From Iphione sp. A-MEVVRFRX5 (lineage: Eukaryota), in contig OZ320319.1 in the NCBI GenBank assembly GCA_976226885.1, positions 71,610,001 to 71,674,000 on the forward strand: a stretch of 64,000 bases of DNA, written 5' to 3'. The translations under genes and the position numbers were made by a program. Below are positions 29,822-48,798 of this stretch, piece after piece; the first letter of the stretch is position 1; every line of letters begins with the position of its first letter. A model generated the notes under the pieces. It ran no database searches. It was not told the DNA's origin and saw only the letters and a list, made by a program, of their open reading frames with translations.

Positions 29822-30792
29822 CTTTACTTTTCCTAATCCGTTTTCTTCCGTCTACCGTTACATTTCCTTCATTACTTTCAACTTTCCACAGTCTTTCCCT
29901 CCTTTCTCACCTTCATTTTCCTATACTCTTCATGTTACCTTTCCTTCCCTTCGTATCTATCCCCTCTCTTCCCTATTCTCTCCTTTATCCTATTCTGATC
30001 TTCCTGTTCGCCAACACTCTCTTGCTCATTTTCTTCTCGCCACTGCTGAGGCCTGTTCCTCTAGCACGGATCACCCTTTGACCGCACCTCGTCGCTGTGT
30101 CTCAACGCGCCTCCAGGCATCCCGGATCTAACGCTGAAGAACCAAAAATTCCCAGGGTACCATGTTTTTTTCGTCCCAGAGTAAGCAATCTGTGTACGTA
30201 TCCCTATTGGCACACTTTGAATTTGGATATACAGCCCTGGCTACGCAATACCACTTCCTCATCGCCAATCATCTGTCTGCGGGGTATAGAGCCAATCCTA
30301 CATGTGGACCTTCATCTTGGTGACAACTACCAATTTAAATACATCACGCAGAGTACTGATTCTCATGAGAAGTTAAGTGCATTTTATGGTGCCATCGATA
30401 CAGTCATTGCTCCCGAGAGCTACAGGTTACTTTATTCTTGAGGAAGAGGACTGGCTTTTAGACGTAATCCTTTGATTAGCCCTCCCATTGAGGGTTATCC
30501 CAAATAAATGTACCAGATATTATTTCAATTGAAATTAAATGCTGCATTTTGACGGTTAACTCCTCTTAGCTCTTTTTCTCGTGCTTATACTGCCCATTTT
30601 CTACTGCTCATTATGTTTTATGATCTGCCTTATCCATCTCCTCTATAAAATAATACCGGAGCATGACAGGGGCAGCGCAAGGCCGAATAGAGCCGGTTTA
30701 TTCTTCATACTCGAAGGGCTTCTGTTGGATAACATTACTGGTGTGCAGCTGTTAGCTTCCAATGGGAGACGACCAAAGAATCTCTATTATAT

Positions 30793-31340
30793 TGTAGGGT
30801 AGCGTAAGGAGGGCTAGACGTACTACATGTACTTGAGAAGGGCCCAAGCAGTTTAAGGAGAAGAAAGTAGGGGCCCGAGCATATAGGGGAGGGGCCCGAA
30901 CAACTGTAGTGGGGCCCAACCACTTTTGTACAAGGGCCCAGCTGTTGCACCGAATGCCCCCTACTTTGACTGACAGATGAGACCAGAAAGAGCAATGTTG
31001 TATCAATTTTATTCCATATTTGGATACAGTCACCGGGTCACATGACGTGTATACTTGCTATAAATAAGAGCCCTGTGTGGCAAATAAACCAGTCTGCACT
31101 TGGATTACGTTGTGGCTGTTGTCTCTTCAGGGAATGCTAGGAACAGATACTCACTTGAACTTACCTTAGGGTTAGCCTATTGGAGTAACGTATTGGATTA
31201 ACACATGAGGATTATTAAGCCAGGTAATTAACTACCATAGGAGGATTTACCAAGTGGGAATAACAACACACATACGACACTTGGGGATATTACTTTATTC
31301 CAAGGAGTAACTCAAAGGAGATTTAAATACGCAGATTACA
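30793..31340 (+). repeat. 5' LTR (548 bp)
   Basis: Runs TGTAGGG...ATTACA, with TATAAATA at 31059 and AATAAA at 31083. Matches 42092-42639 except at 3 positions. Confidence 0.98.
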
Positions 31341-31341
31341 C

Positions 31342-31360
31342 TGGTGTCAGAAGTGGGATT
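31342..31360 (+). promoter_or_regulatory. Primer binding site complementary to the tRNA-Leu 3' end
   Basis: TGGTGTCAGAAGTGGGATT is the reverse complement of AATCCCACTTCTGACACCA, the 3' end of eukaryotic tRNA-Leu. It starts 1 nt after the LTR. Confidence 0.9.
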
Positions 31361-31371
31361 CCCCAGACAAG

Positions 31372-32235
31372 ATGGCTACAGCTTATGTCTCTGTGGATGA
31401 TGAAGTGCAGATTCGTGTCACCAGCCCGGCACCTGACACAGAAGAGGAGGAGCACTTTGAGATTGCTCCAGAAGAGCCACTCAAGATCAACACTTTGAAG
31501 CCGGAGCGGTTTGACGGTAAGACTGTTGATTGGGACAGCTGGATCAGTCAGTTTGCGGAGTGGGCAACCGCTTGCAGGTGGGGGGAGGACACAAAATGTT
31601 CTGCATTGACCCTGTCCCTGACTGGGACAGCCCGCATGTACTATGGGGATCTCCCTGCCGAGGAGAAGAGGGACTATGCTAGCAGGGTGGCCGCCCTTGA
31701 GCGAAGATTTGGCAGAAGGAGGGATCGCGTTGTGGCAATGCAGAAGCTATCAGGCATGAGACGTCAGAAAGATGAAGATGTGAGGGACTTGGCCGATCGG
31801 GTTAGGAGGCTGGTACGTACAGCCTACCCCGACGTGACGGGGGAAACTAGGGAATTGGCAGCTGTCGCGGCATTCCAGAGGGCCCTAGCAGACTCCCTCC
31901 ACTTGAAGTGCCTCGAAGCCAAGTGTACCACGCTAGATAACGCCGTCCAGGTGGTGGAGACTCAGGAACGTTTTCGGGCAAAGGCAATTAACACCGTACA
32001 GCAGGCTCCCATTCAGACCCCTATCGCCTCAACCCCAGCTGGGTGGAAAAAGGAGATGGAGGAGCTCATAGCTCAGGAAATCCGGAAACTGAGGGAAGAA
32101 GCTAAGACCCCAGAGGAGGGAAAGCCAAGGAAGCCCCGGTTCACTGGATGCTATCAGTGTGGACAACATGGCCACTTTAAGCGGGATTGTCCCCAGCTAC
32201 CCGCATCGGGAAACGCCAACCAGCCGGCTCAGTAG
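31372..32235 (+). CDS. gag: Gag (287 aa) with capsid-like region and CCHC knuckle
   Basis: KPERFDG...W...W...L..SLTG.A capsid-like motif and CYQCGQHGHFKRDC zinc knuckle. Confidence 0.95.
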   Translation: MATAYVSVDDEVQIRVTSPAPDTEEEEHFEIAPEEPLKINTLKPERFDGKTVDWDSWISQFAEWATACRWGEDTKCSALTLSLTGTARMYYGDLPAEEKRDYASRVAALERRFGRRRDRVVAMQKLSGMRRQKDEDVRDLADRVRRLVRTAYPDVTGETRELAAVAAFQRALADSLHLKCLEAKCTTLDNAVQVVETQERFRAKAINTVQQAPIQTPIASTPAGWKKEMEELIAQEIRKLREEAKTPEEGKPRKPRFTGCYQCGQHGHFKRDCPQLPASGNANQPAQ

Positions 32236-32933
32236 GCCAGGAGGGCGCGGCTGATCCAGTCCCCATGGGGTGTATAATGGAACAAGGCCAGGGGCCACAC
32301 TTACAGGTAAGCGTGAGGGGTGGCAACTATATGTTTCTGGTGGATACAGGGGCCGAAGTTTCCATTGTTAACCCTGAGGTGGTCCCTGGCCTAGAAGGTG
32401 ACAGGGGGGAGATCCGGATTACTGGGGCGGGTGGGCATGTAATCCCCACACTAGGAAAAGAGGTCCTAGAGGTAGAAGTAGCAGGTAAACAGTTTTCCCA
32501 TCCTTTCTTGATAGCTCAAATTGGGGAAGAGGGTATCTTGGGGAATGATTTCTTAAACCACCATCAGGCAGTCATAGACCTGGCTCATGGGAGGGTGTGT
32601 TTTGATAGTAGGTCCGGGGGGCAGCGATGCCCTGAGAAGCCGACTGCCCTGCGTGTGGCCCATGATGTGTCTTTGTCCCCAGGCGAGGGGACGGCTGTCC
32701 CCCTGATTAACCCTGGGGGTGCATCCTTCCTGATAGAAGGGGTGGATGAGAAGCAAATGGGGAGGGGGATCTTCGGGATTAGGAGCATTGTTAGAGCCAC
32801 CCTCCCCCTTTGGAATTTGGGAGATCGGGATGTGATGCTGACGCAGGGGACCCTATTAGCCATGGGGCACCCAACCTGTTGCTCAGAAGTCACGAAAGGG
32901 GCCCCTGAAAACAGGGTCCGGATGATTCAGTAG
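32208..32933 (+). CDS. pol: Aspartic protease region of pol, in the -1 frame relative to gag
   Basis: FLVDTGAEVSIV active site and GILGNDFL motif. A G GGA AAC slippery site lies at 32208-32214. The ORF ends at TAG 32931-32933. Confidence 0.92.
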   Translation, partial: GKRQPAGSVGQEGAADPVPMGCIMEQGQGPHLQVSVRGGNYMFLVDTGAEVSIVNPEVVPGLEGDRGEIRITGAGGHVIPTLGKEVLEVEVAGKQFSHPFLIAQIGEEGILGNDFLNHHQAVIDLAHGRVCFDSRSGGQRCPEKPTALRVAHDVSLSPGEGTAVPLINPGGASFLIEGVDEKQMGRGIFGIRSIVRATLPLWNLGDRDVMLTQGTLLAMGHPTCCSEVTKGAPENRVRMIQ

Positions 32934-35858
32934 GTGTCTGGGGCAGTGTTTGAGGGGTTATTGGCCCAGACAGCAGGACGACTCCAAGAGGGAGAACAGG
33001 TAGCCCTTGCCAAGGTCCTAAGGAAGCATAAAGCTGTGTTCGCTCGGTCGAAGGGGGACCTGGGGCAGACCGACCTGGTACAACATAGGATCTACCTACT
33101 AGACCCCCACCCTATTAAGCAGCCCCCTAGGCGGCTCCCCATAGCCCGGCGGCGAGAGGAGCGTGAGCTGGTGGCGGAGATGAGGGCGCTGGGGGTGATC
33201 CGGGAGAGCAGTAGCCCTTGGTCCAGTCCGGTGGTCATGGTCCGAAAGAAAGACGGCACCACCCGTTTCTGCGTTGATTATCGGAAGTTGAACCAGCAGA
33301 CGAAGGTCGACGCCTACCCCCTGCCACGGATAGATGACTCACTGAGCACGTTGGCAGGCGCCCGGTACTTCTGTTCCTTGGATTTGGCATCAGGCTACTG
33401 GCAGGTCCGGATGCACCCCGAGGACCGCGAAAAAACGGCTTTCTCTACATCCGTAGGACTGTACGAGTTCACCGTAATGCCGTTTGGGTTGGTGAATGCC
33501 CCGGCCACGTTCGAGCGGTTGATGGACACAGTATTACGGGGTCTTGCCTGGGAGCAGTGCCTCGTGTACCTGGACGATATCTTAGTGTTTGGGCGAGATT
33601 TCCCAGAGACACTAGAAAGGCTGGACCGCGTGCTAAGTCGAATTGCCCAGGCTGGGTTGAAGCTCAAACCAACCAAGTGCCAGTTGTTCTTGGAAGAGGT
33701 CGGTTTCCTCGGACACCTTGTCTCGCGAAAGGGGGTGGCGACTGACCCTGCTAAGACCAAATGCATCGTCGACTGGCCGACCCCACGATGCACTACTGAT
33801 GTTCGCGCCTTCTTGGGGATCTGTTCCTATTACCGGCGTCATGTGCCCCGGTTTGCCAATGTAGCCGCACCCCTAAACCGTCTTACCAGTGCAAGGGTGA
33901 GGTTTACCTGGGGGCCAGAAGAAGAGTCTGCATTCCAAGAACTGAAACGGGCACTGAGCACCAGTCCCATCCTCGGCTATCCCCAACCTAATGGGAGGTA
34001 CTACTTGGATACGGACGCCAGTAACGTGGGGCTGGGCGCTGTCTTGGCGCAGGAACAAGAGGGCCAGGAAGTAGTGCTAGCCTACTATAGCCGGAGCCTC
34101 AGCGAGGCAGAACGACGCTACTGCGTCATGCGACGGGAGCTCCTTGCCGTTGTGGCAGCTCTGAAGCACTTCCACTTTTACCTCTATGGGCAGGATGTAA
34201 CCGTGCGCACTGATAACGGGGCTGTCAGCTGGCTCAGCCGGATAAAGGACCCAGAGGGACAGCTAGCCCGTTGGTTGGAAAGGATTGGCCAATATCGATT
34301 GCAGCTCGTTCATCGTGCAGGGCGACTGAATTCCAACGCTGACGCTCTGTCTCGTCGAGTTTGTCGGCAGTGCCAACAACCCCACCTTGAACCTGAGGAA
34401 GAGGAGGTGATTCCAGTAAGGGTGGTGACCCGCAGCCAGACTACCCCCGCTCCGGGTCGGGAATTACGTCGGGACCAGCTACAAGACGAGACTGTAGGGC
34501 CAATCCTGCGACTGAGAGAAGAGACCACGGATCAACCTTCATGGGAAGCAGTGTCTGCCCTGCCAGCCGCGGCGAAGGCTTTATGGAGACAGTGGGACCG
34601 GCTGACGGTCAACGACGGGCTATTACAGCGGCGCTGGTATGGGCTGGGGAGCGATCCCACCCGGTTGCAAGTAGTACTCCCTGCAATACGACAGGAAGGG
34701 GCCATCAAGGAAGTGCATGCTGGACGAACCGGAGGACACTTGGCCACCGATCATACCACCTATTTGGTGTCGCTTGCTTACTATTGGCCAGGGATGCGAA
34801 AGGATGTTGAAGCCTTCTGCCGTCGCTGTCACTGTGCCCTCCTGAATATCAGTCCTCAGAAACCGCAAACTGCATTGAAGACTTACCTGCCCGGTGAGCC
34901 AATGGAACGCTGGTCAATGGACGTGGCGGGGCCCCTACCAGAAACGAAGAGGGGGAATCGCTATGTCCTTATGGTGGGTGACCATTTCACCAAATGGATA
35001 GAGGCCTTCGCCATGCCCGACCAGAAGGCCAGCCGGGTAGCCGCTCTGCTAGCTGAAGAAGTCATTGCACGATACGGGTGCTTCTTAGAGATCCATAGTG
35101 ATCAAGGCACCAATTTCTGCAGTGAAGTCCTGGTGGCGCTGTGCCAGTATTTGGATATAAAGAAGACCCGGACTACGCCGCGCCACCCCCAGAGCGACGG
35201 TTTCATTGAGAGGAGCTTCCGTACTATGAGCCGAATGATAAAAGCCCATTGCCATGAAGTGCGGGATGATTGGGACGAGGCTTTACCGTTTTTGATGATG
35301 GCCTATCGGGCCTCGCCGCAAGCTAGTACTGGGTATACCCCGAACTTCCTGATGTTTGGGCGGGAGATCATCCTCCCAGTGCATGCGTGGGACGGACTTC
35401 CACGACACACTATGGAGGAGCGTCCCCTCCCGGAGCAGGTGGCTGATGTCGGGCGTCGGATGCAGGCCGCGTACAAGGAGGTAAGACGCCATTTGCAGCG
35501 GGCCGCGAGGACCCAGGCCCGGGCGTACGACCGCCGAGTGCAGGGGCACCCATTGCAGGATGGGGACGCGGTTTGGTTGCACGAGGCTCAGCCCCCAAAG
35601 GGGCGTAGTCCAAAGACACACTTCCCTTGGACAGGGCCCTGGGCAGTAGTCAGGCGGCTCGATGACGAGCGTTTGGTGATACAGCGGACGCAAAAGGCGA
35701 AGCTGAAAGTGGTCCATAGGAACCGGCTACGACGTTACCAGGGGGACGATCTTCCCCGGTGGATCCTGACACTAAGGAAGAAGATGGTAGCGTCGCAGGA
35801 GAATGGAGAGGTCAAAAAGAAGACTTCGGGCGTGGGGGGAACCAATCCCCCGGAGTAG
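32934..35858 (+). CDS. pol: RT-RNaseH-integrase region of pol, same frame as the protease, after a single TAG
   Basis: RFCVDYRKLN, LDLASGYWQ and YLDD (RT); DTDAS, RELLA, TDN and NADALSR (RH); H..GH..YYWPG..CRRC, MDVAGP, HSDQG, DGFIER and WTGPW (IN). Confidence 0.97.
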   Translation: MSGAVFEGLLAQTAGRLQEGEQVALAKVLRKHKAVFARSKGDLGQTDLVQHRIYLLDPHPIKQPPRRLPIARRREERELVAEMRALGVIRESSSPWSSPVVMVRKKDGTTRFCVDYRKLNQQTKVDAYPLPRIDDSLSTLAGARYFCSLDLASGYWQVRMHPEDREKTAFSTSVGLYEFTVMPFGLVNAPATFERLMDTVLRGLAWEQCLVYLDDILVFGRDFPETLERLDRVLSRIAQAGLKLKPTKCQLFLEEVGFLGHLVSRKGVATDPAKTKCIVDWPTPRCTTDVRAFLGICSYYRRHVPRFANVAAPLNRLTSARVRFTWGPEEESAFQELKRALSTSPILGYPQPNGRYYLDTDASNVGLGAVLAQEQEGQEVVLAYYSRSLSEAERRYCVMRRELLAVVAALKHFHFYLYGQDVTVRTDNGAVSWLSRIKDPEGQLARWLERIGQYRLQLVHRAGRLNSNADALSRRVCRQCQQPHLEPEEEEVIPVRVVTRSQTTPAPGRELRRDQLQDETVGPILRLREETTDQPSWEAVSALPAAAKALWRQWDRLTVNDGLLQRRWYGLGSDPTRLQVVLPAIRQEGAIKEVHAGRTGGHLATDHTTYLVSLAYYWPGMRKDVEAFCRRCHCALLNISPQKPQTALKTYLPGEPMERWSMDVAGPLPETKRGNRYVLMVGDHFTKWIEAFAMPDQKASRVAALLAEEVIARYGCFLEIHSDQGTNFCSEVLVALCQYLDIKKTRTTPRHPQSDGFIERSFRTMSRMIKAHCHEVRDDWDEALPFLMMAYRASPQASTGYTPNFLMFGREIILPVHAWDGLPRHTMEERPLPEQVADVGRRMQAAYKEVRRHLQRAARTQARAYDRRVQGHPLQDGDAVWLHEAQPPKGRSPKTHFPWTGPWAVVRRLDDERLVIQRTQKAKLKVVHRNRLRRYQGDDLPRWILTLRKKMVASQENGEVKKKTSGVGGTNPPE

Positions 35859-36871
35859 CCGGAGCCAGGACGAATTGGGGGTATGAGCACCCAGGTGGCA
35901 CTCAAAAAGTTCATGGAAGGTGGTGGAACACCTGGAGCGTGTAGCGCTCAAAAGTTCCAGTAGGACATGACGGACGTCCTGAGGATCATCGGCATCCAAA
36001 ACGAGTCCGTGTAGGGGTAGACTCCCTGTAAGCGTCCAAAAAGTTCTGGGAGGTGAAAGCGAGGAGAGCCTGGAGCTGCTAGAAACTTAGAATGCTCCTC
36101 GGAAGGAGAGAGTAGACATCCTGGGGGCCATGCGGGCCCTGAAAAGGTCTAGGAGGAGGACGGACATCCTGGGACGCTTAAAAAGGTCTGGAGTGGGAGG
36201 ATGAACATCCCAGAGTGCACAAAAGAGCTTATGGAATGTGCAGGGCTATCGGAGAGGGCCAGGAGTTAGACATCGGAAGACTGGAGAACGATCTCCAGAG
36301 GGGTCGATAGGTAGGCCCCTGAGAGGAGCAACCGAGAGGGTGACTAGGACGAGAACAGACTGTTCCACAAAGAGTTAGGTTCCCCCCCCTTTTACCACCA
36401 AGGGGTGGGAGAGAAACCGGCCTCCACACCGTCGCCGCACGGAACGCTATCCAAACTGCTGGTCATCCCCGCTGAGGGAACGCTTGGGCCAGGACGTAGC
36501 CCATGGCTTCCGCAAGACAAGAGATCCATCGTGGGCCTGGTGAGGAAGAGTAGCACTACGTATGGATAGCAACGGGCTGGCCAAACCACGGTCTGAACCA
36601 AGCTGCCGTCCCTTTCCTCTAGGAGAAGGCGGAGACCAAGATGCTGTCCACTTCCTCTGGGGGCACCTGCTGCTCGGCTGCTAGGATAAGGTAAAAGATA
36701 ATCATCCCATCTAACCGACGGCCCCTGACATTAGGAAGTAAATTCCCCCCCTTTTTCCCTCTGAAAGGACCGACAAAGAGAATCAAAGGTTAGGAAATTT
36801 ATTCATCAGCAACAGTAAAAATATACACTTGAGTATATACAATGGCTACATACAACATGCAAGCCCCAGGG

Positions 36872-38082
36872 TTAGTCATCCTCCACCAGGATGGGGTGGC
36901 ACGCCAAATCCCCTGCCCGCACCTCCAGCAACCAGTTCACGATCCCAGTGGGCAGGTCATCAACCAAGGCCCGGCCAAAGAGGGGGCCTGTCTCGGGGGA
37001 CCCCACTGGTGTTGGGCGCGATGGGGTGTCGCAGGAAGACAATGAGTCTGGTGACGGGGAACGCGGGGAGGAGGACTCGGAGGAGCCGTCCGAGCTGAGG
37101 ACGGGAAACCAGTCGCAATCGGAAGAGGCTTGTCGGGGTGGTGTCCGCGTTGAGAACAACCCAAAAGATTCGTCAGAAGAGGAGTCGTAGTGAGGACTCC
37201 AGGGATCGAGCATCTCTGTTGTCCATGACCCCGGAGACCAGGAACGCTCGCTGGGCGAGGAAACGAAGGGCCGGGCCGGTGGAGACGACGGGATGTATGC
37301 AGGGGAGCGGTCGTCCAGCTGGCTCAGGTAGGCCTCTACGGAGCGGGGGCTCACCTCGGGAGATACCGCCTCCGCCCGGACCGAGTAACAAGGGGAGGTG
37401 GGAGGAGCCAGCGGCGTCATCGGAATGGCCGAACATGGGGAAGATGGCTCGATGGGGTGCACACTGATGGTAACCCGGTGGTAGGGCCCAAAGAGCTGTA
37501 CTTGGCCCGGAGCAGGAATGAACAGAGGGTCGGTGAGGACTGGGTAGAGTCCGAACACCCGGATCATTGGTCCGGGCGTCCCTATGTCCAGGGACCTGTA
37601 GTAAGTATCCGGCGGGAAACTCCTGGGAGGAAGAAAGAAGAAAGAAGGTTAGAAAAAAAAGAAAAAAAAAAAAAAAAAAAAAAAAAAGAGTTCTCTTACC
37701 TGGTGAGCAACCAACTGACAACTGGCAACAGTAGGAAAACCAGCAGGTCACAACTGGTAATCGTGGACGGCTCCAAAGGAAACGGAGACTCTACCTATCA
37801 TCCGCTGGAGGGTACCCTGCTAACTCCCGGGCCAAGGCCTCAATGTCAGGGGACTGACACGGCTGGGGCAGAGATAGGGATGCTCTGGAATATCAGGAGC
37901 AAGGAAAGTGTAAGCAACCATTCTTCCCTCACCCCCCTCCTGTTTGGAAATAGCAAGGATACACAGCAAAAAGTATGCAGCACTAAGAAATCTTACCGGT
38001 CGGACCACACAGGATCCCTGGACTCCCAAGGGAGAAAACATCCATGCTGGGTCATGCCTGTGAGATAGGGAGGTAATTCCAT
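36872..38082 (-). CDS. Predicted spliced antisense accessory gene, 308 aa (exons 38082-37997, 37884-37795, 37622-36872), Ser/Pro-rich, function unknown
   Basis: TATAAATA at 38158-38151 and a GCCATGG start. GT-AG introns 37996-37885 and 37794-37623 keep the frame (86+90+751 = 927 nt). AATAAA at 36803-36798. Confidence 0.6.
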
Positions 38083-38150
38083 GGCTGGAAGGCCCAAGTG
38101 TACGCCTAAGTGTCTTCGCGACGACTGGCGCAGCAGACCGCGCGGTGCGA

Positions 38151-38900
38151 TATTTATAGACGGGTACAACTGTCGCTCGGGCCCCGTGAGAAACACAGAC
38201 ACCGCGCGGAGGGCCCGACCGGTACCTGAACGCTAGCTCGCTCGGGCCCCGTGTAGAAAACGAAAACGAGCAAAACGGGCCCGATCGATAAGCAGACTGG
38301 GAGAAAAAGGTTTTTCGTGGCAGAAAAATATTCGTAAAATTACCTACAGCGAAAAAGGGCCCGACCAAGTACGAGGTTACGCTCGGGCCCCCAAACCGGA
38401 AGAGGCCGAAAGGTAAACATCCGCCGAGCCTCGTTTTGATCTCCAGAAGCAGCAGACGAGTTTTCGTGTCAATAAAAACTGCAAAATTTAAGGAACTAAA
38501 GAAGAATCAACCCGAAGAGAAGGAGGAAATGGATCAAGACCCATCCTAGCATCATCAAGGACGTCCCTTTGAAGAGGGGGGAGGAAGCAGAAGCCAGCTT
38601 CGTGGGAGAAAAGACCGACCGGCGTTGGGGCCCGACAAGCAGAAGACCTGAGGGCCCGAGCGGAGGAGTACGCTGATCTGTGTGAGTGTAGCGAATCTTC
38701 CCTTCTGTCGGGCCCTGCCTCTGTTGTTTTTTCGTGGAGTACGCTGATCTGTAGCGAATATCCCCTTCTGTCGGGCCCTGCCTCTGTTGTTTTCGTGATG
38801 CAGCACGGGCCCGAGTGATACCGCGATTGTTGTACCTTTGGGGGGCCCGAACACCGAGCATTCGTTGTGATCCTATAGGGCCCGAGCAGCAGGGCCCGAG
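38151..38900. promoter_or_regulatory. Candidate internal bidirectional promoter with 14 GGGCCCGA motifs
   Basis: Non-coding interval between two divergent ORFs. All 14 GGGCCC hexamers in it extend to GGGCCCGA or TCGGGCCC. Confidence 0.6.
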
Positions 38901-38964
38901 CCCCAAGCCTTGTCAAGACCTCCAGTAAGTAGTTGTCTTCCCCGTACTACCTGGCCATCCCATC

Positions 38965-40932
38965 ATGCCGCGTCCCATCATTGGCATGCCAAAGGTAAAG
39001 AGGGTGTTGAAGAAGGATGACCCCATCCCAGAGGGGACTAAGTTGTGTCAACTCTGCACTGTAAGGCGGCCCTTTTTTCCCGGGGATTCCATGGAACGCC
39101 ACCTGGATGCAGTCCACCGGGGGAAAAGGAGCCGGCGCATGTACTGCCTGTACTGCCCAGGTGTGATAGGGGATGTGCATTCCTGGGCCGCGCATGTGCG
39201 GCGCTACCACCCGTGGGCTGCTCAAATGGGCCTGGTAGAGCCGAGGTATCGGGATCTCTACGACGTGACACCCAAGGCGGACCCGCACGTACCTGATGAC
39301 GAGCTGACCCCGATCATCTTGAGAGCTCGCACTCTGAGGGCCGACGGATGGGCCCTGGGGGAGGCAGAAGCGGAGGACATGTTGGCCAACGCCCCGCGTC
39401 GCTCCTCGCCCCCACGTGTAGAGCGGGAAACCCGAGCCTCGTCAAGGCGGCGGAAGGCCTCGGCCGGCACCCCGAACGAGAGGAGTAAGCCTGCCAAAAG
39501 AGGGAGGAGTACAGCAGTCGTCCCACCCACTACACCTCCACTGGGTCAGGCGGAGGGTCACGGGGATTCCCCGGCAAGGGTGCGACAGCCTAGCCAGGAA
39601 GTGGACGTCCCGTATGCCGCCGATCGCCCGCCCAGTATGGCTACCCCCACCTTGTCCAAGGCCCCCTCTACAACCTCTGCCGCTACCCCCCGGGGGAAGA
39701 GTAGAGCCGCAAAGAGAAGGAAAGGGGCGTCGGTCGCCCAGCCTACTGCACCTCCCCCGGGTGACGGGGAAGGCCGTGAGAACCCCCCAGCAAGGACGGG
39801 CCAGCCCTGCCAGGGGGCGGTCGCCCCTTACCCCGCCGGTCATCTACCCAGTGCGGCCACCCCTGCCTTGCCTGGAGCCCCCCCTTCAGCTGAAGGGACA
39901 CCAGCTACTGACGACCCAGGTGATGCCGCCCCCACCTGGAGGCTACCCGCAACCTGGGATCAGGGGGAGGTTGATGCAGTGGTCTCGCAACTGCAGCGAG
40001 CAGTAGAACCTCCCCTGGTAGGCCTCCTGTCGGCCGGCGACACGACCCAGACAGGTAGGGCCCCAGCTACGCGGGACCCCCTCTTATGCCAAGGGGTCGC
40101 TACTCCCTGCCCAACGTCGGGAGAGTGGAGCGGGAGGCCTTCTGGCACGTACCAACCATCTACCCCGTCTCGGGACACTGTTCCGGGGTGGGGAGAGCTG
40201 GAGATGGGCCCCCTCGGCCCAGGATTTGTGCTCTCAGGGACTGAGGAAACCCTACCGGGTCCCTCTACGTCCGTGCAGGGGCGACTACCCCGTATGGCTC
40301 AGCGCCTCTTATCGCCTGACCGGGCTGGCCCTGCCGCTGCCCGGGCGATGGACATCCTCGATGGGCTAGCCCCACCCTACTTCACAGTCGCCCGCGCCTC
40401 TACCCCCCCTGCACCTGTCCGCCTGCCCTCCACTATGCCGTGGCCACCTCGGGGTTGGGAGGCATGGAGCCCCACCCATCGGCTAATGGCCTGTGTCTCT
40501 GTTGCGTGGGTATTATTTCTGGCAGAGGGAGACGTGCAGGCCCCCAAGTCCTTGCTGACACCGTTGCAGCGGCACCCCTGGCTATTACTCCCCGGGGTCA
40601 CCATCCCCACTGCGGCCGACTGGGGCAGCTTGGAGGCCACCATTGGGCGACACAATCGGGCGGTGGATGCAGCGGAGGGATTACTAAAAGGTTTGCAGGC
40701 CCAAGTGGGGGATCAACAGAAGCCACCGGTGGAGGCCCGACAATGGAGGCAGGAGGCCAGCCTAGCGAGGTCGGCACGCGAACAGCGTAACCCAACCCTG
40801 GCTGACATCTGTGCGTTTGCTCCGCCCTGGCAAAGTCGGCTTGACTTGCAGGACATTTGGCCAGAGGCAGCACTACCGACCCACTCCGGCTCCCAGGCAG
40901 AGTACTCCCCCTTAGCATCGCGCCAACAGTAG
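38965..40932 (+). CDS. Accessory ORF, 655 aa, with two N-terminal C2H2-like zinc fingers, basic patches and a Pro-rich middle
   Basis: C-x2-C-x14-H-x4-H (CQLC...HLDAVH) and C-x2-C-x12-H-x4-H (CLYC...HVRRYH). The ORF is uninterrupted and lies inside the LTR pair. No signal peptide is evident. Confidence 0.8.
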   Translation: MPRPIIGMPKVKRVLKKDDPIPEGTKLCQLCTVRRPFFPGDSMERHLDAVHRGKRSRRMYCLYCPGVIGDVHSWAAHVRRYHPWAAQMGLVEPRYRDLYDVTPKADPHVPDDELTPIILRARTLRADGWALGEAEAEDMLANAPRRSSPPRVERETRASSRRRKASAGTPNERSKPAKRGRSTAVVPPTTPPLGQAEGHGDSPARVRQPSQEVDVPYAADRPPSMATPTLSKAPSTTSAATPRGKSRAAKRRKGASVAQPTAPPPGDGEGRENPPARTGQPCQGAVAPYPAGHLPSAATPALPGAPPSAEGTPATDDPGDAAPTWRLPATWDQGEVDAVVSQLQRAVEPPLVGLLSAGDTTQTGRAPATRDPLLCQGVATPCPTSGEWSGRPSGTYQPSTPSRDTVPGWGELEMGPLGPGFVLSGTEETLPGPSTSVQGRLPRMAQRLLSPDRAGPAAARAMDILDGLAPPYFTVARASTPPAPVRLPSTMPWPPRGWEAWSPTHRLMACVSVAWVLFLAEGDVQAPKSLLTPLQRHPWLLLPGVTIPTAADWGSLEATIGRHNRAVDAAEGLLKGLQAQVGDQQKPPVEARQWRQEASLARSAREQRNPTLADICAFAPPWQSRLDLQDIWPEAALPTHSGSQAEYSPLASRQQ

Positions 40933-42078
40933 GTGGAGATTGTAGCCGCTACCTTAGAGACCTTTCATGGGGAAGGGACCGACACAGGGACATAGGGGTG
41001 GGGTATATTTTGTGTAATCTAACGGTAACCCCGACTGTTCTGCTGGAAGGCTAAAAGAAAGAGGACTGTACCTCCCAAAAAGAGAATTTTTGATGGATGC
41101 TGTGCTCAGGTGTTACCAGATAATGAGGTGTTGTCGGACTCTGTGGGGGGGATTTGATGTTGTTTATCCAAGAACAGAGGGAACTGGCGGATAAGGCATA
41201 CCAGGTGTTAGGTGATTACTATAAGTCGTTCTGTGATCAAGGTGTTGATTATATGTAACCACAAAGGATACTGATGACGTTTCTGTAGGGGGGGGGCAAA
41301 ATGGATATGCGCCATACTGTGATTTGAGAAAAGAAAACTACAGAAGAGGACTGTACCTCCCAAAAAGAGAATCCGTGTAAGTGAAGTGATTAGATGTTGC
41401 CGGCCTATGTGCCGCTGGTGGTGTTGACAGTACTTACCCAAGCGAGTGGTGGCAAAGCAGTGTGATACCAACATGACGGGTGTTGCCAAGCGATCAGGAG
41501 TGATTTGATTATGTACCAGTGACGACGTTAAGGATGTTAATAGTATTTACCCAAGATTATGTGCCATTGATGATGTTAAGAGTGTTGGCAGTATTTACCC
41601 AAGTGAAAAGTGGCAAAGCGGTGTGATAGCGACATGACGGGCGTTCCCAAGTGATCAGGTGTGGCTAGATTATGTGACTGTGATAGACGTTACAATTTCA
41701 CCACCCCGTTACGATCTGATCAGCTGTTGTTATCAAATATGCCACTACTACTGTTATAGCTTATCATATTACTGTGAACAATCAATTCTCGTCTTGTTGT
41801 GATTTTCTCGGGTTGTTACTCAGACAGGCATGATGGCCTTGTGTTTACCACTGTTTTGTTAAAAATTTGGTCTGTTGATGCTATCAAGTGTGATATTGTT
41901 AGAGGGGCCTATTTTCAAGTTGCTATCAAGTATGTCGTTACGATTTTCTCAGGGTGTCCCCCAGATGTTGTTTTCCTAGCTGTGATAGGTGTGGCCGCCT
42001 CGCGTTCGCCGTTGTTCTGTTATGATTTGATCCGTTAGTGCTATCAAGTGTGACATTGTTAGAGGGGCCTATTTTTTT

Positions 42079-42091
42079 AAGCAGGGGAGAG
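42079..42091 (+). promoter_or_regulatory. Polypurine tract
   Basis: AAGCAGGGGAGAG immediately precedes the 3' LTR. Confidence 0.85.
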
Positions 42092-42639
42092 TGTAGGGTA
42101 GCGTAAGGAGGGCTAGACGTACTACATGTACTTGAGAAGGGCCCAAGCAGTTTAAGGAGAAGAAAGTAGGGGCCCGAGCATATAGGGGAGGGGCCCGAAC
42201 AACTGTAGTGGGGCCCAACCACTTTTGTACAAGGGCCCAGCTGTTGCACCGAATGCCCCCTACTTTGACTGACAGATGAGACCAGAAAGAGCAATGTTGT
42301 ATCAATTTTATTCCATATTTGGATACAGTCACCGGGTCACATGACGTGTATACTTGCTATAAATAAGAGCCCTGTGTGGCAAATAAACCAGTCTGCACTT
42401 GGATTACGTTGTGGCTGTTGTCTCTTCAGGGAATGCTAGGAACACATACCCACTTGAACTTACCTTAGGGTTAGCCTATTGGAGTAACGTATTGGATTAA
42501 CACATGAGGATTATTAAGCCAGGCAATTAACTACCATAGGAGGATTTACCAAGTGGGAATAACAACACACATACGACACTTGGGGATATTACTTTATTCC
42601 AAGGAGTAACTCAAAGGAGATTTAAATACGCAGATTACA
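42092..42639 (+). repeat. 3' LTR (548 bp)
   Basis: Copy of 30793-31340, followed by the ATAT TSD. Confidence 0.98.
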
Positions 42640-47630: not shown

Positions 47631-48113
47631 CTGAAAATAAAGAATTTCATAAATATTAGCTCTATCACGAATCATTCAGCTACTACAAACTGGGACAATA
47701 TCTGTTTTTATTTCATGTATTGGGCTTTCCTGTTTTTTTCATTTTGGTCATATCCATCAAACTTCAAACAAGCCAAAAGCTTTGAAACCCCTTCCCCAAG
47801 TTATGGGCATGTCATCATAACAGTAAACAATAACACCCTTATAAAATAAAATACAGATTTTGATATTGCAGTTGTGCTCCCTCTCCGTAACCTAAGTCAT
47901 GATTTTGCAACTTATGCCACGTATACGTTTTCTGTAATTTGCTGCAGTCATACATCATGGAATTTAACCGCTGCATAAACGAACCACAGGAGGCTTGTTT
48001 ATTCCAAGTAATTACAAATTGTTAAATGTACCTGTGCTTGGATAAAAGTATTTATGCGGCACTTATTGGTCAAGATTACTTCCCATATATCTATATACTA
48101 AATTGTATGTGAT

Positions 48114-48401
48114 AGATACAGCACGAGTAGAGCACTCTACGCGATATATTACTGTATAATCATCGAGGCAATGCCAAGAGGATTATACAGTAATATATCA
48201 AGTACATGCTCTACGAGAGCTGTATCTCANNNNNNNNNNNNNNNNNNNNNNNNNNNNNNNNNNNNNNNNNNNNNNNNNNNNNNNNNNNNNNNNNNNNNNN
48301 NNNNNNNNNNNNNNNNNNNNNNNNNNNNNNNNNNNNNNNNNNNNNNNNNNNNNNNNNAGTCATGCCTCCCTTCTCTCTCTGTCTCTCTCTCATTCTCTCT
48401 G

Positions 48402-48434
<33 letters not shown>

Positions 48435-48783
48435 TAATAAGGTTGGTACTATGAGGCAACAGGTTCAGCTGAGTTCAGAGACTGCGTTGAACCCCTTGCC
48501 ACGTTTGCTCATTGTCTTTAGGCTCCGGTGCGATTTTTTTCTCTCTCTCTCTTAATGTTCGTCAGTTTTTGTACGACTCGTAGTAAAATACCGAGTCACG
48601 GCTGCAGTGTTTCTTTGGGCACTGCTGTCTGGCGCCATGATGGCACCCATGATATTATGGAATACGTGATAGATACAGCACAAGTAGAGCACTGTATGCG
48701 ATATATTACAAATAATCTTCGAGGCACAGCCGAGGAGATTATGAAGTAATATATCAAGTGCATGCTCTACGAGGGCTGTATCT
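48114..48783. repeat. Two diverged copies (48114-48227, 48671-48783) of a ~113-bp unit with inverted ends, flanking an N-gap (48230-48357) and (CT)n tracts
   Basis: Both copies run agatacagcac.agtagagca ... tgctctacgag.gctgtatct. Confidence 0.7.
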
Positions 48784-48798
48784 CACTTAAAGTCACGG

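Follow-up and report, generated by a model that had tools for sequence, protein, structure and literature searches.

LTR retrotransposons are usually thought to depend on host factors for their transcription. Two described systems come closest to the locus reported here: the bovine foamy virus Tas protein (BTas) binds both the LTR and an internal promoter, and does so as a dimer (PMC4929722), and the VANC proteins of Arabidopsis VANDAL elements bind motifs specific to each family, which build up in tandem repeats (PMC5735166). Extra open reading frames are also known within Ty3/gypsy, namely the antisense TRP28 gene of Retand (PMC11963269), a GDSL/DEDDy ORF3 in bdelloid elements (PMC5408684) and CERV in Cer1 (PMC10309623). 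Like the gene described below, these lie between pol and the 3' LTR and are not env genes. They are in sense or antisense orientation, some are spliced and some have been proposed to be regulators; the accessible parts of those three reports contain no ORF3 with two C2H2 fingers and no matching lineage-specific cis motif in both promoters. Nor is this C2H2 ORF3 gene mentioned in the accessible parts of four further papers (PMC6238403, PMC8220671, PMC10886601, PMC12859917). The accessible literature, to which most subscription journals, Repbase and supplements do not belong, describes no C2H2 ORF3 with matched LTR motifs, and an earlier annotation is possible.

An accessory gene in a young Ty3/gypsy element

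The window, by which we mean the whole stretch of 64,000 nucleotides that was analyzed, carries a young Ty3/gypsy retrotransposon at 30793-42639, in which the gene that we call ORF3 lies between pol and the 3' LTR. TG...CA LTRs, primer-binding site, polypurine tract and target duplication are all present. The two LTRs (548 nt; 30793-31340 on the plus strand, TGT...ACA, and 42092-42639) are 99.45% identical, with the target duplication ATAT at 30789-30792 just before the first and again after the second; the polypurine tract and 3' LTR together span 42079-42639 (plus strand). The primer-binding site TGGTGTCAGAAGTGGGAT (31342-31359, plus strand), which we take to be of the tRNA-Leu type, is identical in other lineages and in the metagenome contig L092. 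A gag gene with a CCHC knuckle (31372-32235, plus strand) is followed by pro-RT-RNaseH-integrase (32265-35858, plus strand; Pfam and ORF list), with GGGAAAC at 32208-32214 in the gag-pro overlap as a candidate slippery heptamer for -1 frameshifting. The Pfam domain order, from gag knuckle through protease, RT and RNase H to integrase, is that of gypsy, and a Gmr1 order was ruled out, the integrase being downstream of RT. In the window copy pol is broken by an in-frame stop at 32931-32933, which is missing from all five other copies checked.

Among 18 regions examined, LTR pairs were found in 14 (13 at 99.4-100% identity, one at 98.4%); one of the remaining four gave just a 75% repeat and three gave none. 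LTR lengths span about 550 to over 1000 nt across lineages, and several 3' LTRs (L033, L034, L035, L122-L131) show growth of U3 by tandem repeats of about 43-170 nt with at least one site per unit. The 4-bp target duplications, in the window and in other copies, lean to ATAT/GTAT-like sequences. Three loci (L037 with L057, L075 and L089) are missing most of pol and retain gag, an antisense gene and ORF3; the L037-type frame of 537 aa recurs at six loci, which suggests non-autonomous amplification. Open reading frames flanking some insertions (L034:8266-9953; L039:9463-10000; L041:9075-9593) seem to resemble Polinton/adintovirus-type genes, and the host flank of the window holds a two-copy repeat with a period of about 557 nt at 48106-48785.

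ORF3 occupies 38965-40932 on the plus strand, between the end of pol at 35858 and the 3' LTR, and is an open frame of 655 aa, as had been stated in an earlier note made from the sequence alone. The two C2H2 fingers written out there (39046-39210; residues 28-51 and 61-82) are confirmed, with the spacings C28-x2-C31-x14-H46-x4-H51 and C61-x2-C64-x12-H77-x4-H82. They are followed by a conserved helical domain (39214-39399, about residues 84-145), by a variable linker (39415-40266, residues 151-434) which at 16% Pro is the proline-rich region already noticed, and by a conserved C-terminal domain (40267-40866, residues 435-634) with WPP..W...RL and LPG motifs, shared with Mytilus proteins. A C-terminal block of some 170 residues had been proposed; the block exists and is larger, at about 200 residues. 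The basic, NLS-like patches also pointed out are present in the linker, but this is variable and the patches are family-specific, without conservation in other lineages. An env identity was rejected: the full protein has no Pfam match, to fusion proteins or otherwise, and it has no signal or membrane stretch (maximum 19-residue Kyte-Doolittle mean 1.48; 0.02 over the first 43 aa), so ORF3 is not an env gene, in agreement with the first description.

The AlphaFold model of the N-terminal region (pLDDT 80.8) consists of two predicted beta-beta-alpha fingers and a helical domain, the helices at 41-51 and 71-81 bearing the His pairs of the fingers. Its closest structural neighbours are DNA-binding C2H2 proteins, including CTCF, Kaiso and tramtrack, all below significance; Foldseek with the finger model against PDB and BFVD returned nothing at E<=0.001, and the best Z from VIA was 3.2. 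The family zf-C2H2_12 matches 7 of 15 members (best E 7.9e-5), the window protein scoring 14.5 bits against a cut-off of 27.3. The C-terminal domain was modelled poorly (pLDDT 45.9) and left out of the fold search; its profile found no match in a PDB sequence search. An ESM Atlas search yielded unnamed or weak clusters only. The modelled fingers, their C2H2 neighbours (non-significant as they are) and a candidate DNA target within the element support the layout of a DNA-binding regulator suggested from the sequence, and we infer a nuclear location and DNA binding for ORF3.

The organism's own genome (1.18 Gb) was searched with residues 1-122, which gave 1952 candidates; at least 28 copies of the window family, the window copy being one of them, are found among the 150 that were scored. 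Further genome searches and 100 sequence stretches added many more ORF3 lineages. Eleven full ORF3 proteins are 39-41% identical to that of the window, conserved at residues 1-150 and 435-634 and variable in the linker. The finger ligands, whose loss in relatives the earlier note had named as counting against its reading, are all eight unchanged in 15 of 15 N-domains, from lineages that share about 40% identity, and 26 of the 28 window-family copies keep every one; disruption in most copies had been named likewise, and 17 of the 28 are open over the first 622 codons. Between lineages dS is saturated; over 12 pairs, dN/dS (wherever dS could be measured) is 0.00-0.27 for the fingers, 0.07-0.27 for the C-terminal domain and 0.15-0.53 for the linker. 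Inside the window family pN/pS is 0.14-0.17 versus 0.51. The fingers and the C-terminal domain are under purifying selection, and this Ty3/gypsy lineage has in ORF3 an accessory gene that is conserved and selected.

Distant relatives in mussels

Homologues outside the genome are sparse. The finger region gave none among 83 candidates, an alignment of the C-terminal domain none among 8000 scored, and no ORF3 relative was present in 31 stretches of viral contigs. A profile search of 1.84 billion proteins returned five weak matches, of which the top one is a Mytilus edulis protein and another (P0004) a generic C2H2 protein. The mussel set includes the Mytilus "C2H2-type domain-containing proteins" CAG2256847.1 (P0001) and P0015, together with contig L091. 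The sequence comparisons support homology for the C-terminal domain only (E 8.6e-6; profile comparison probability 95.9 over 93 columns); in profile comparison the Mytilus-type fingers failed to align to those of the window lineage.

Like ORF3, the Mytilus proteins have two N-terminal Cys/His fingers, a variable linker and the homologous C-terminal domain, with an integrase upstream and the same primer-binding site in L092; they differ in being annotated as host genes, in an extra middle domain and in having no motif array in L091 or L092. That extra domain, conserved after a YSP motif, was observed in the mollusc-type proteins P0001, P0027, P0028 and P0030 and is absent from the window lineage. 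One Mytilus gene model is an integrase fused to an ORF3-type frame, and contig L091 reads gag-pol-ORF3 with a pol 45% identical to that of the window element, which makes ORF3 an old part of this gypsy clade and suggests that a group of mollusc entries named "C2H2-type domain-containing protein" in UniProt are in fact genes of retrotransposons. The order in L092:1884-3760 is ORF3, LTR-like region, the same primer-binding site and gag, which reads as a mussel-type element in circular or tandem form. No antisense ORF of the window type was seen in L091 or L092. No repeated motif was found in three of three mussel-type regions tested, so the motif system described next may be lineage-restricted.

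Repeated DNA motifs upstream of ORF3 and in U3

The hexamer GGGCCC occurs 33 times in the window element: 14 copies stand in the 720 bp that precede ORF3 and each LTR has 5, compared with 8 in the remaining 52 kb of the window. The internal sites lie in a putative divergent promoter region (38177-38899), and all 14 read TCGGGCCC, 5 on the plus and 9 on the minus strand; those of the 5' LTR are YYGGGCCC sites in U3, with GGGCCC at 30840, 30871, 30892, 30912 and 30934, and the 3' LTR has five such sites as well. The top 6-mer upstream of ORF3 counts 14, a number reached in none of 100 shuffles, for which the maximum averages 4.2, and in the window U3 (278 nt) a targeted test gave 2 TCGGGC against a shuffle maximum of 1.

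Other lineages have other half-sites in the same two places (TCGTGG, TGGCGG, TYGGGG, CTTGGG, TCGTGT and TTGYGA), mostly arranged as 6+2+6 dyads. With the caveat that the data tested here also served to define the generic dyad and the motif classes, and that G-run families score at spacer 1 too, the generic dyad T.G.G.-NN-.C.C.A upstream of ORF3 beats all shuffles in 21 of 24 lineage representatives. The three exceptions are the window family (0), F4 (3) and EDQT (1), whose sites are lopsided; for the window family the 6+2+6 dyad was rejected outright, there being no dyad at spacer 2. Asymmetric sites were observed in the sister family F8 too (TCGGGTCCCC; L082:4700-5800).

The motif class upstream of ORF3 is the same as that in U3 in 62 of the 63 callable elements, and the single mismatch is an old disrupted copy with two matches; 69 elements were examined, and the comparison drops L112 (no finger pair), L046, L050 and L134 (U3 not located) and L043 and L087 (under 2 hits). 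Sites are better conserved than their flanks (p<0.05) in 8 of 10 subfamily pairs, six divergent copies being left out of this test; within the window family site conservation is just a trend (p=0.07-0.09; 21 of 27 rows kept).

The array upstream of ORF3 sits between it and a predicted spliced antisense gene (36798-38158, minus strand), and the putative internal promoter region is common to both. This minus-strand gene has a TATA box; its features in the window are TATAAATA at 38158-38151, donor-like sites at 37996 and 37699, an intron at 37699-37623 with a poly(T) tract, a coding exon ending at 36872 and AATAAA at 36803-36798. The donor and poly(T) intron signature is seen in all 13 representatives, and 12 of them have AATAAA. 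The product has a conserved N-terminal domain of about 60 aa, present in all 15 elements tested, and its tail is Ser/Pro-rich and acidic; it has no family or DNA-binding domain match in Pfam and, used as a profile, none in PDB.

The residues at the start of the finger-2 helix vary together with the motif: HEQ pairs with TGGCGG, D(E/D)Q and EDQ with TCGTGG, DEY with CTTGGG, D(V/T)Q with TCGTGT, EMY with TTGYGA and (D/N)VH with TYGGG, the DVHS helix accompanying two motif classes. Over the stretch that runs from the end of U3 to the end of pol, families F1 and F5 show 94.7% identity, but their U3, ORF3 and motif are different. In F3 and F6 the LTR, pol and antisense gene are shared (96.8%); ORF3 has been exchanged between them, the helix start DEQS and the motif being kept. 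As far as these alignments go, the motif changes with the ORF3 finger helices rather than with pol, and the mosaic pattern of the elements would fit a lock-and-key constraint. Physical linkage and homology-limited recombination could explain part of it, since linkage allows one template switch to move ORF3, internal region and U3 jointly.

Motif predictions from the finger-2 helix were written down before the DNA was viewed, and were right for 27 of 37 firmly predicted copies: HEQ 13/13, DEQS 4/4, DEYA 7/7 and EDQT 3/3, one of the last only in U3. Failures fell at inner bases in new clades, in 8 D(V/T)QS copies (TCGTGT, where TCGTGG was predicted) and 2 EMYS copies (TTGYGA, where TTGGG was predicted), and a softer guess, made for 2 F14 copies, was wrong as well. 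A rule of recognition by finger 2 only, which mispredicted these new clades, is incomplete, and the successes largely reflect descent, most belonging to ORF3 clades that had been seen before. On the tree of the C-terminal domain the motif needs five changes, the fewest possible, and an AU test does not reject a monophyletic TCGTGG group (p=0.062); F2c, F8 and F10 were left out of the integrase trees, and L082 out of alignment A5. Much of the covariation between motif and helix is shared descent.

A proposed self-encoded regulator and its known counterparts

Given these observations, we favour the view, with a probability of roughly 0.6, that ORF3, encoded by the element itself, binds DNA sequence-specifically and serves as an activator or anti-silencer of the internal promoter and of U3. 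Weak basal transcription from the internal promoter would lead to ORF3 being made; bound to the internal array, it would exert feedback on its own gene and on the divergent antisense gene, and on the U3 array it would then drive genomic RNA. The two fingers would read the 6-bp half-site T-x-G-x-G-x, and in most lineages two ORF3 molecules would presumably occupy the observed 6+2+6 dyad, the site of the window family being asymmetric. The C-terminal domain might recruit host co-factors, which is the weakest step.

The activating direction of this effect is presumed, as is the binding itself. ORF3 could bind the same sites as a repressor or insulator, to cap copy-number damage or to keep antisense and sense units apart; everything that speaks for binding counts here too, the nearest sites come as close as 20-70 bp to the ORF3 start codon, a position at which binding could obstruct transcription, and the weak, non-significant fold neighbours include CTCF, Kaiso and tramtrack. 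We nevertheless regard this as unlikely: the arrays in U3 are found upstream of the TATA box and grow by tandem repetition of units that each hold one site, as in enhancers and VANC targets (PMC5735166), and many ORF3 lineages have recently been amplified with intact frames, including pol-less copies such as L037.

It is unlikelier still that the motifs are sites for host transcription factors, a different one in each lineage, with ORF3 playing another role. The kappa-B consensus is GGGRNWYYCC, to which F2-type sites such as GGGGAACCCC do conform, and the mussel-type relatives retain ORF3 without visible arrays. The six motifs, however, fall in one frame, T-x-G-x-G-x, with a free 2-bp spacer, so that several unrelated factors with the same geometry would be needed, and their variable bases change with finger-helix residues.

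C2H2 fingers can also bind RNA, and the element has predicted introns. ORF3 as a Rev- or CERV-like RNA-binding protein, with the dyads forming RNA hairpins for export or packaging, would have Cer1 CERV as a precedent (PMC10309623) and is in our judgement very improbable. Across 18 representatives the dyad halves vary independently, being complementary in 276 of 423 cases against 282.7 expected, and the spacer is free, a pattern that suits DNA sites of a protein rather than RNA stems; this applies to dyads only, and the non-palindromic sites of the window family lie on both strands. Sites cluster at promoters, with no enrichment in gag-pol or the 3' UTR. Least probable by our estimate is that the antisense product reads the motifs in place of ORF3: it is linked to the arrays and conserved in 15 of 15 elements tested, and antisense DNA-binding candidates have been proposed for plant Retand elements in the accessible text (PMC11963269), but no DNA-binding domain was detected in it, and the F4 antisense protein groups with F1/F5 (100/99) whereas the F4 motif and finger-2 helix resemble those of F3/F6.

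A bolder picture can be entertained, tentatively and at somewhat less than even odds: at least seven mutually specific protein-site pairs in one genome, ORF3 cassettes swapped only within a specificity class, so that each lineage would switch on itself and not its competitors, a widespread env-less animal Ty3/gypsy clade encoding its own transcription factor, and a natural code for a two-finger dimer. At least seven such pairs in one genome would make protein-DNA coevolution, and discrimination between self and non-self among families, testable.

Among known systems, foamy-virus Tas/Bel1 likewise comes from an accessory gene close to the 3' LTR; its N-terminal region binds DNA, as predicted for ORF3, and its C-terminal region is the effector, as presumed for ORF3. 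Its targets are in U3 and an internal promoter, as are the candidate sites here, and it acts as a dimer, as ORF3 may (PMC4929722, accessible text). Tas belongs to Retroviridae with env and has been tested, whereas ORF3, a C2H2 protein with a predicted activity and no Pfam match, comes from a Ty3/gypsy element that lacks env, and its sites, unlike Tas targets, are many copies of one short motif; Pfam, PDB and BFVD searches gave no Tas-type homologue. The VANC21 and VANC6 proteins, as far as the accessible text goes (PMC5735166), are element-encoded too, with conserved domains and a variable region, their short family-specific motifs are dense in non-coding regions and often tandem, and protein and motif change together, a pattern confounded here by descent. 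VANDALs differ in being plant DNA transposons with same-orientation arrays and not dyads. Loss of methylation has been shown for VANC, to which no homology was detected, and for ORF3 it is hypothetical; the CpG o/e of 1.00 in the internal region 38177-38899, compared with 0.58-0.59 in the host flanks, would fit a VANC-like loss of silencing marks and is only suggestive. On our best reading, ORF3 would work like foamy-virus Tas or plant VANC while having no detectable homology to known families, and, if this is true, regulatory logic of both the Tas and the VANC type exists in an animal Ty3/gypsy clade.
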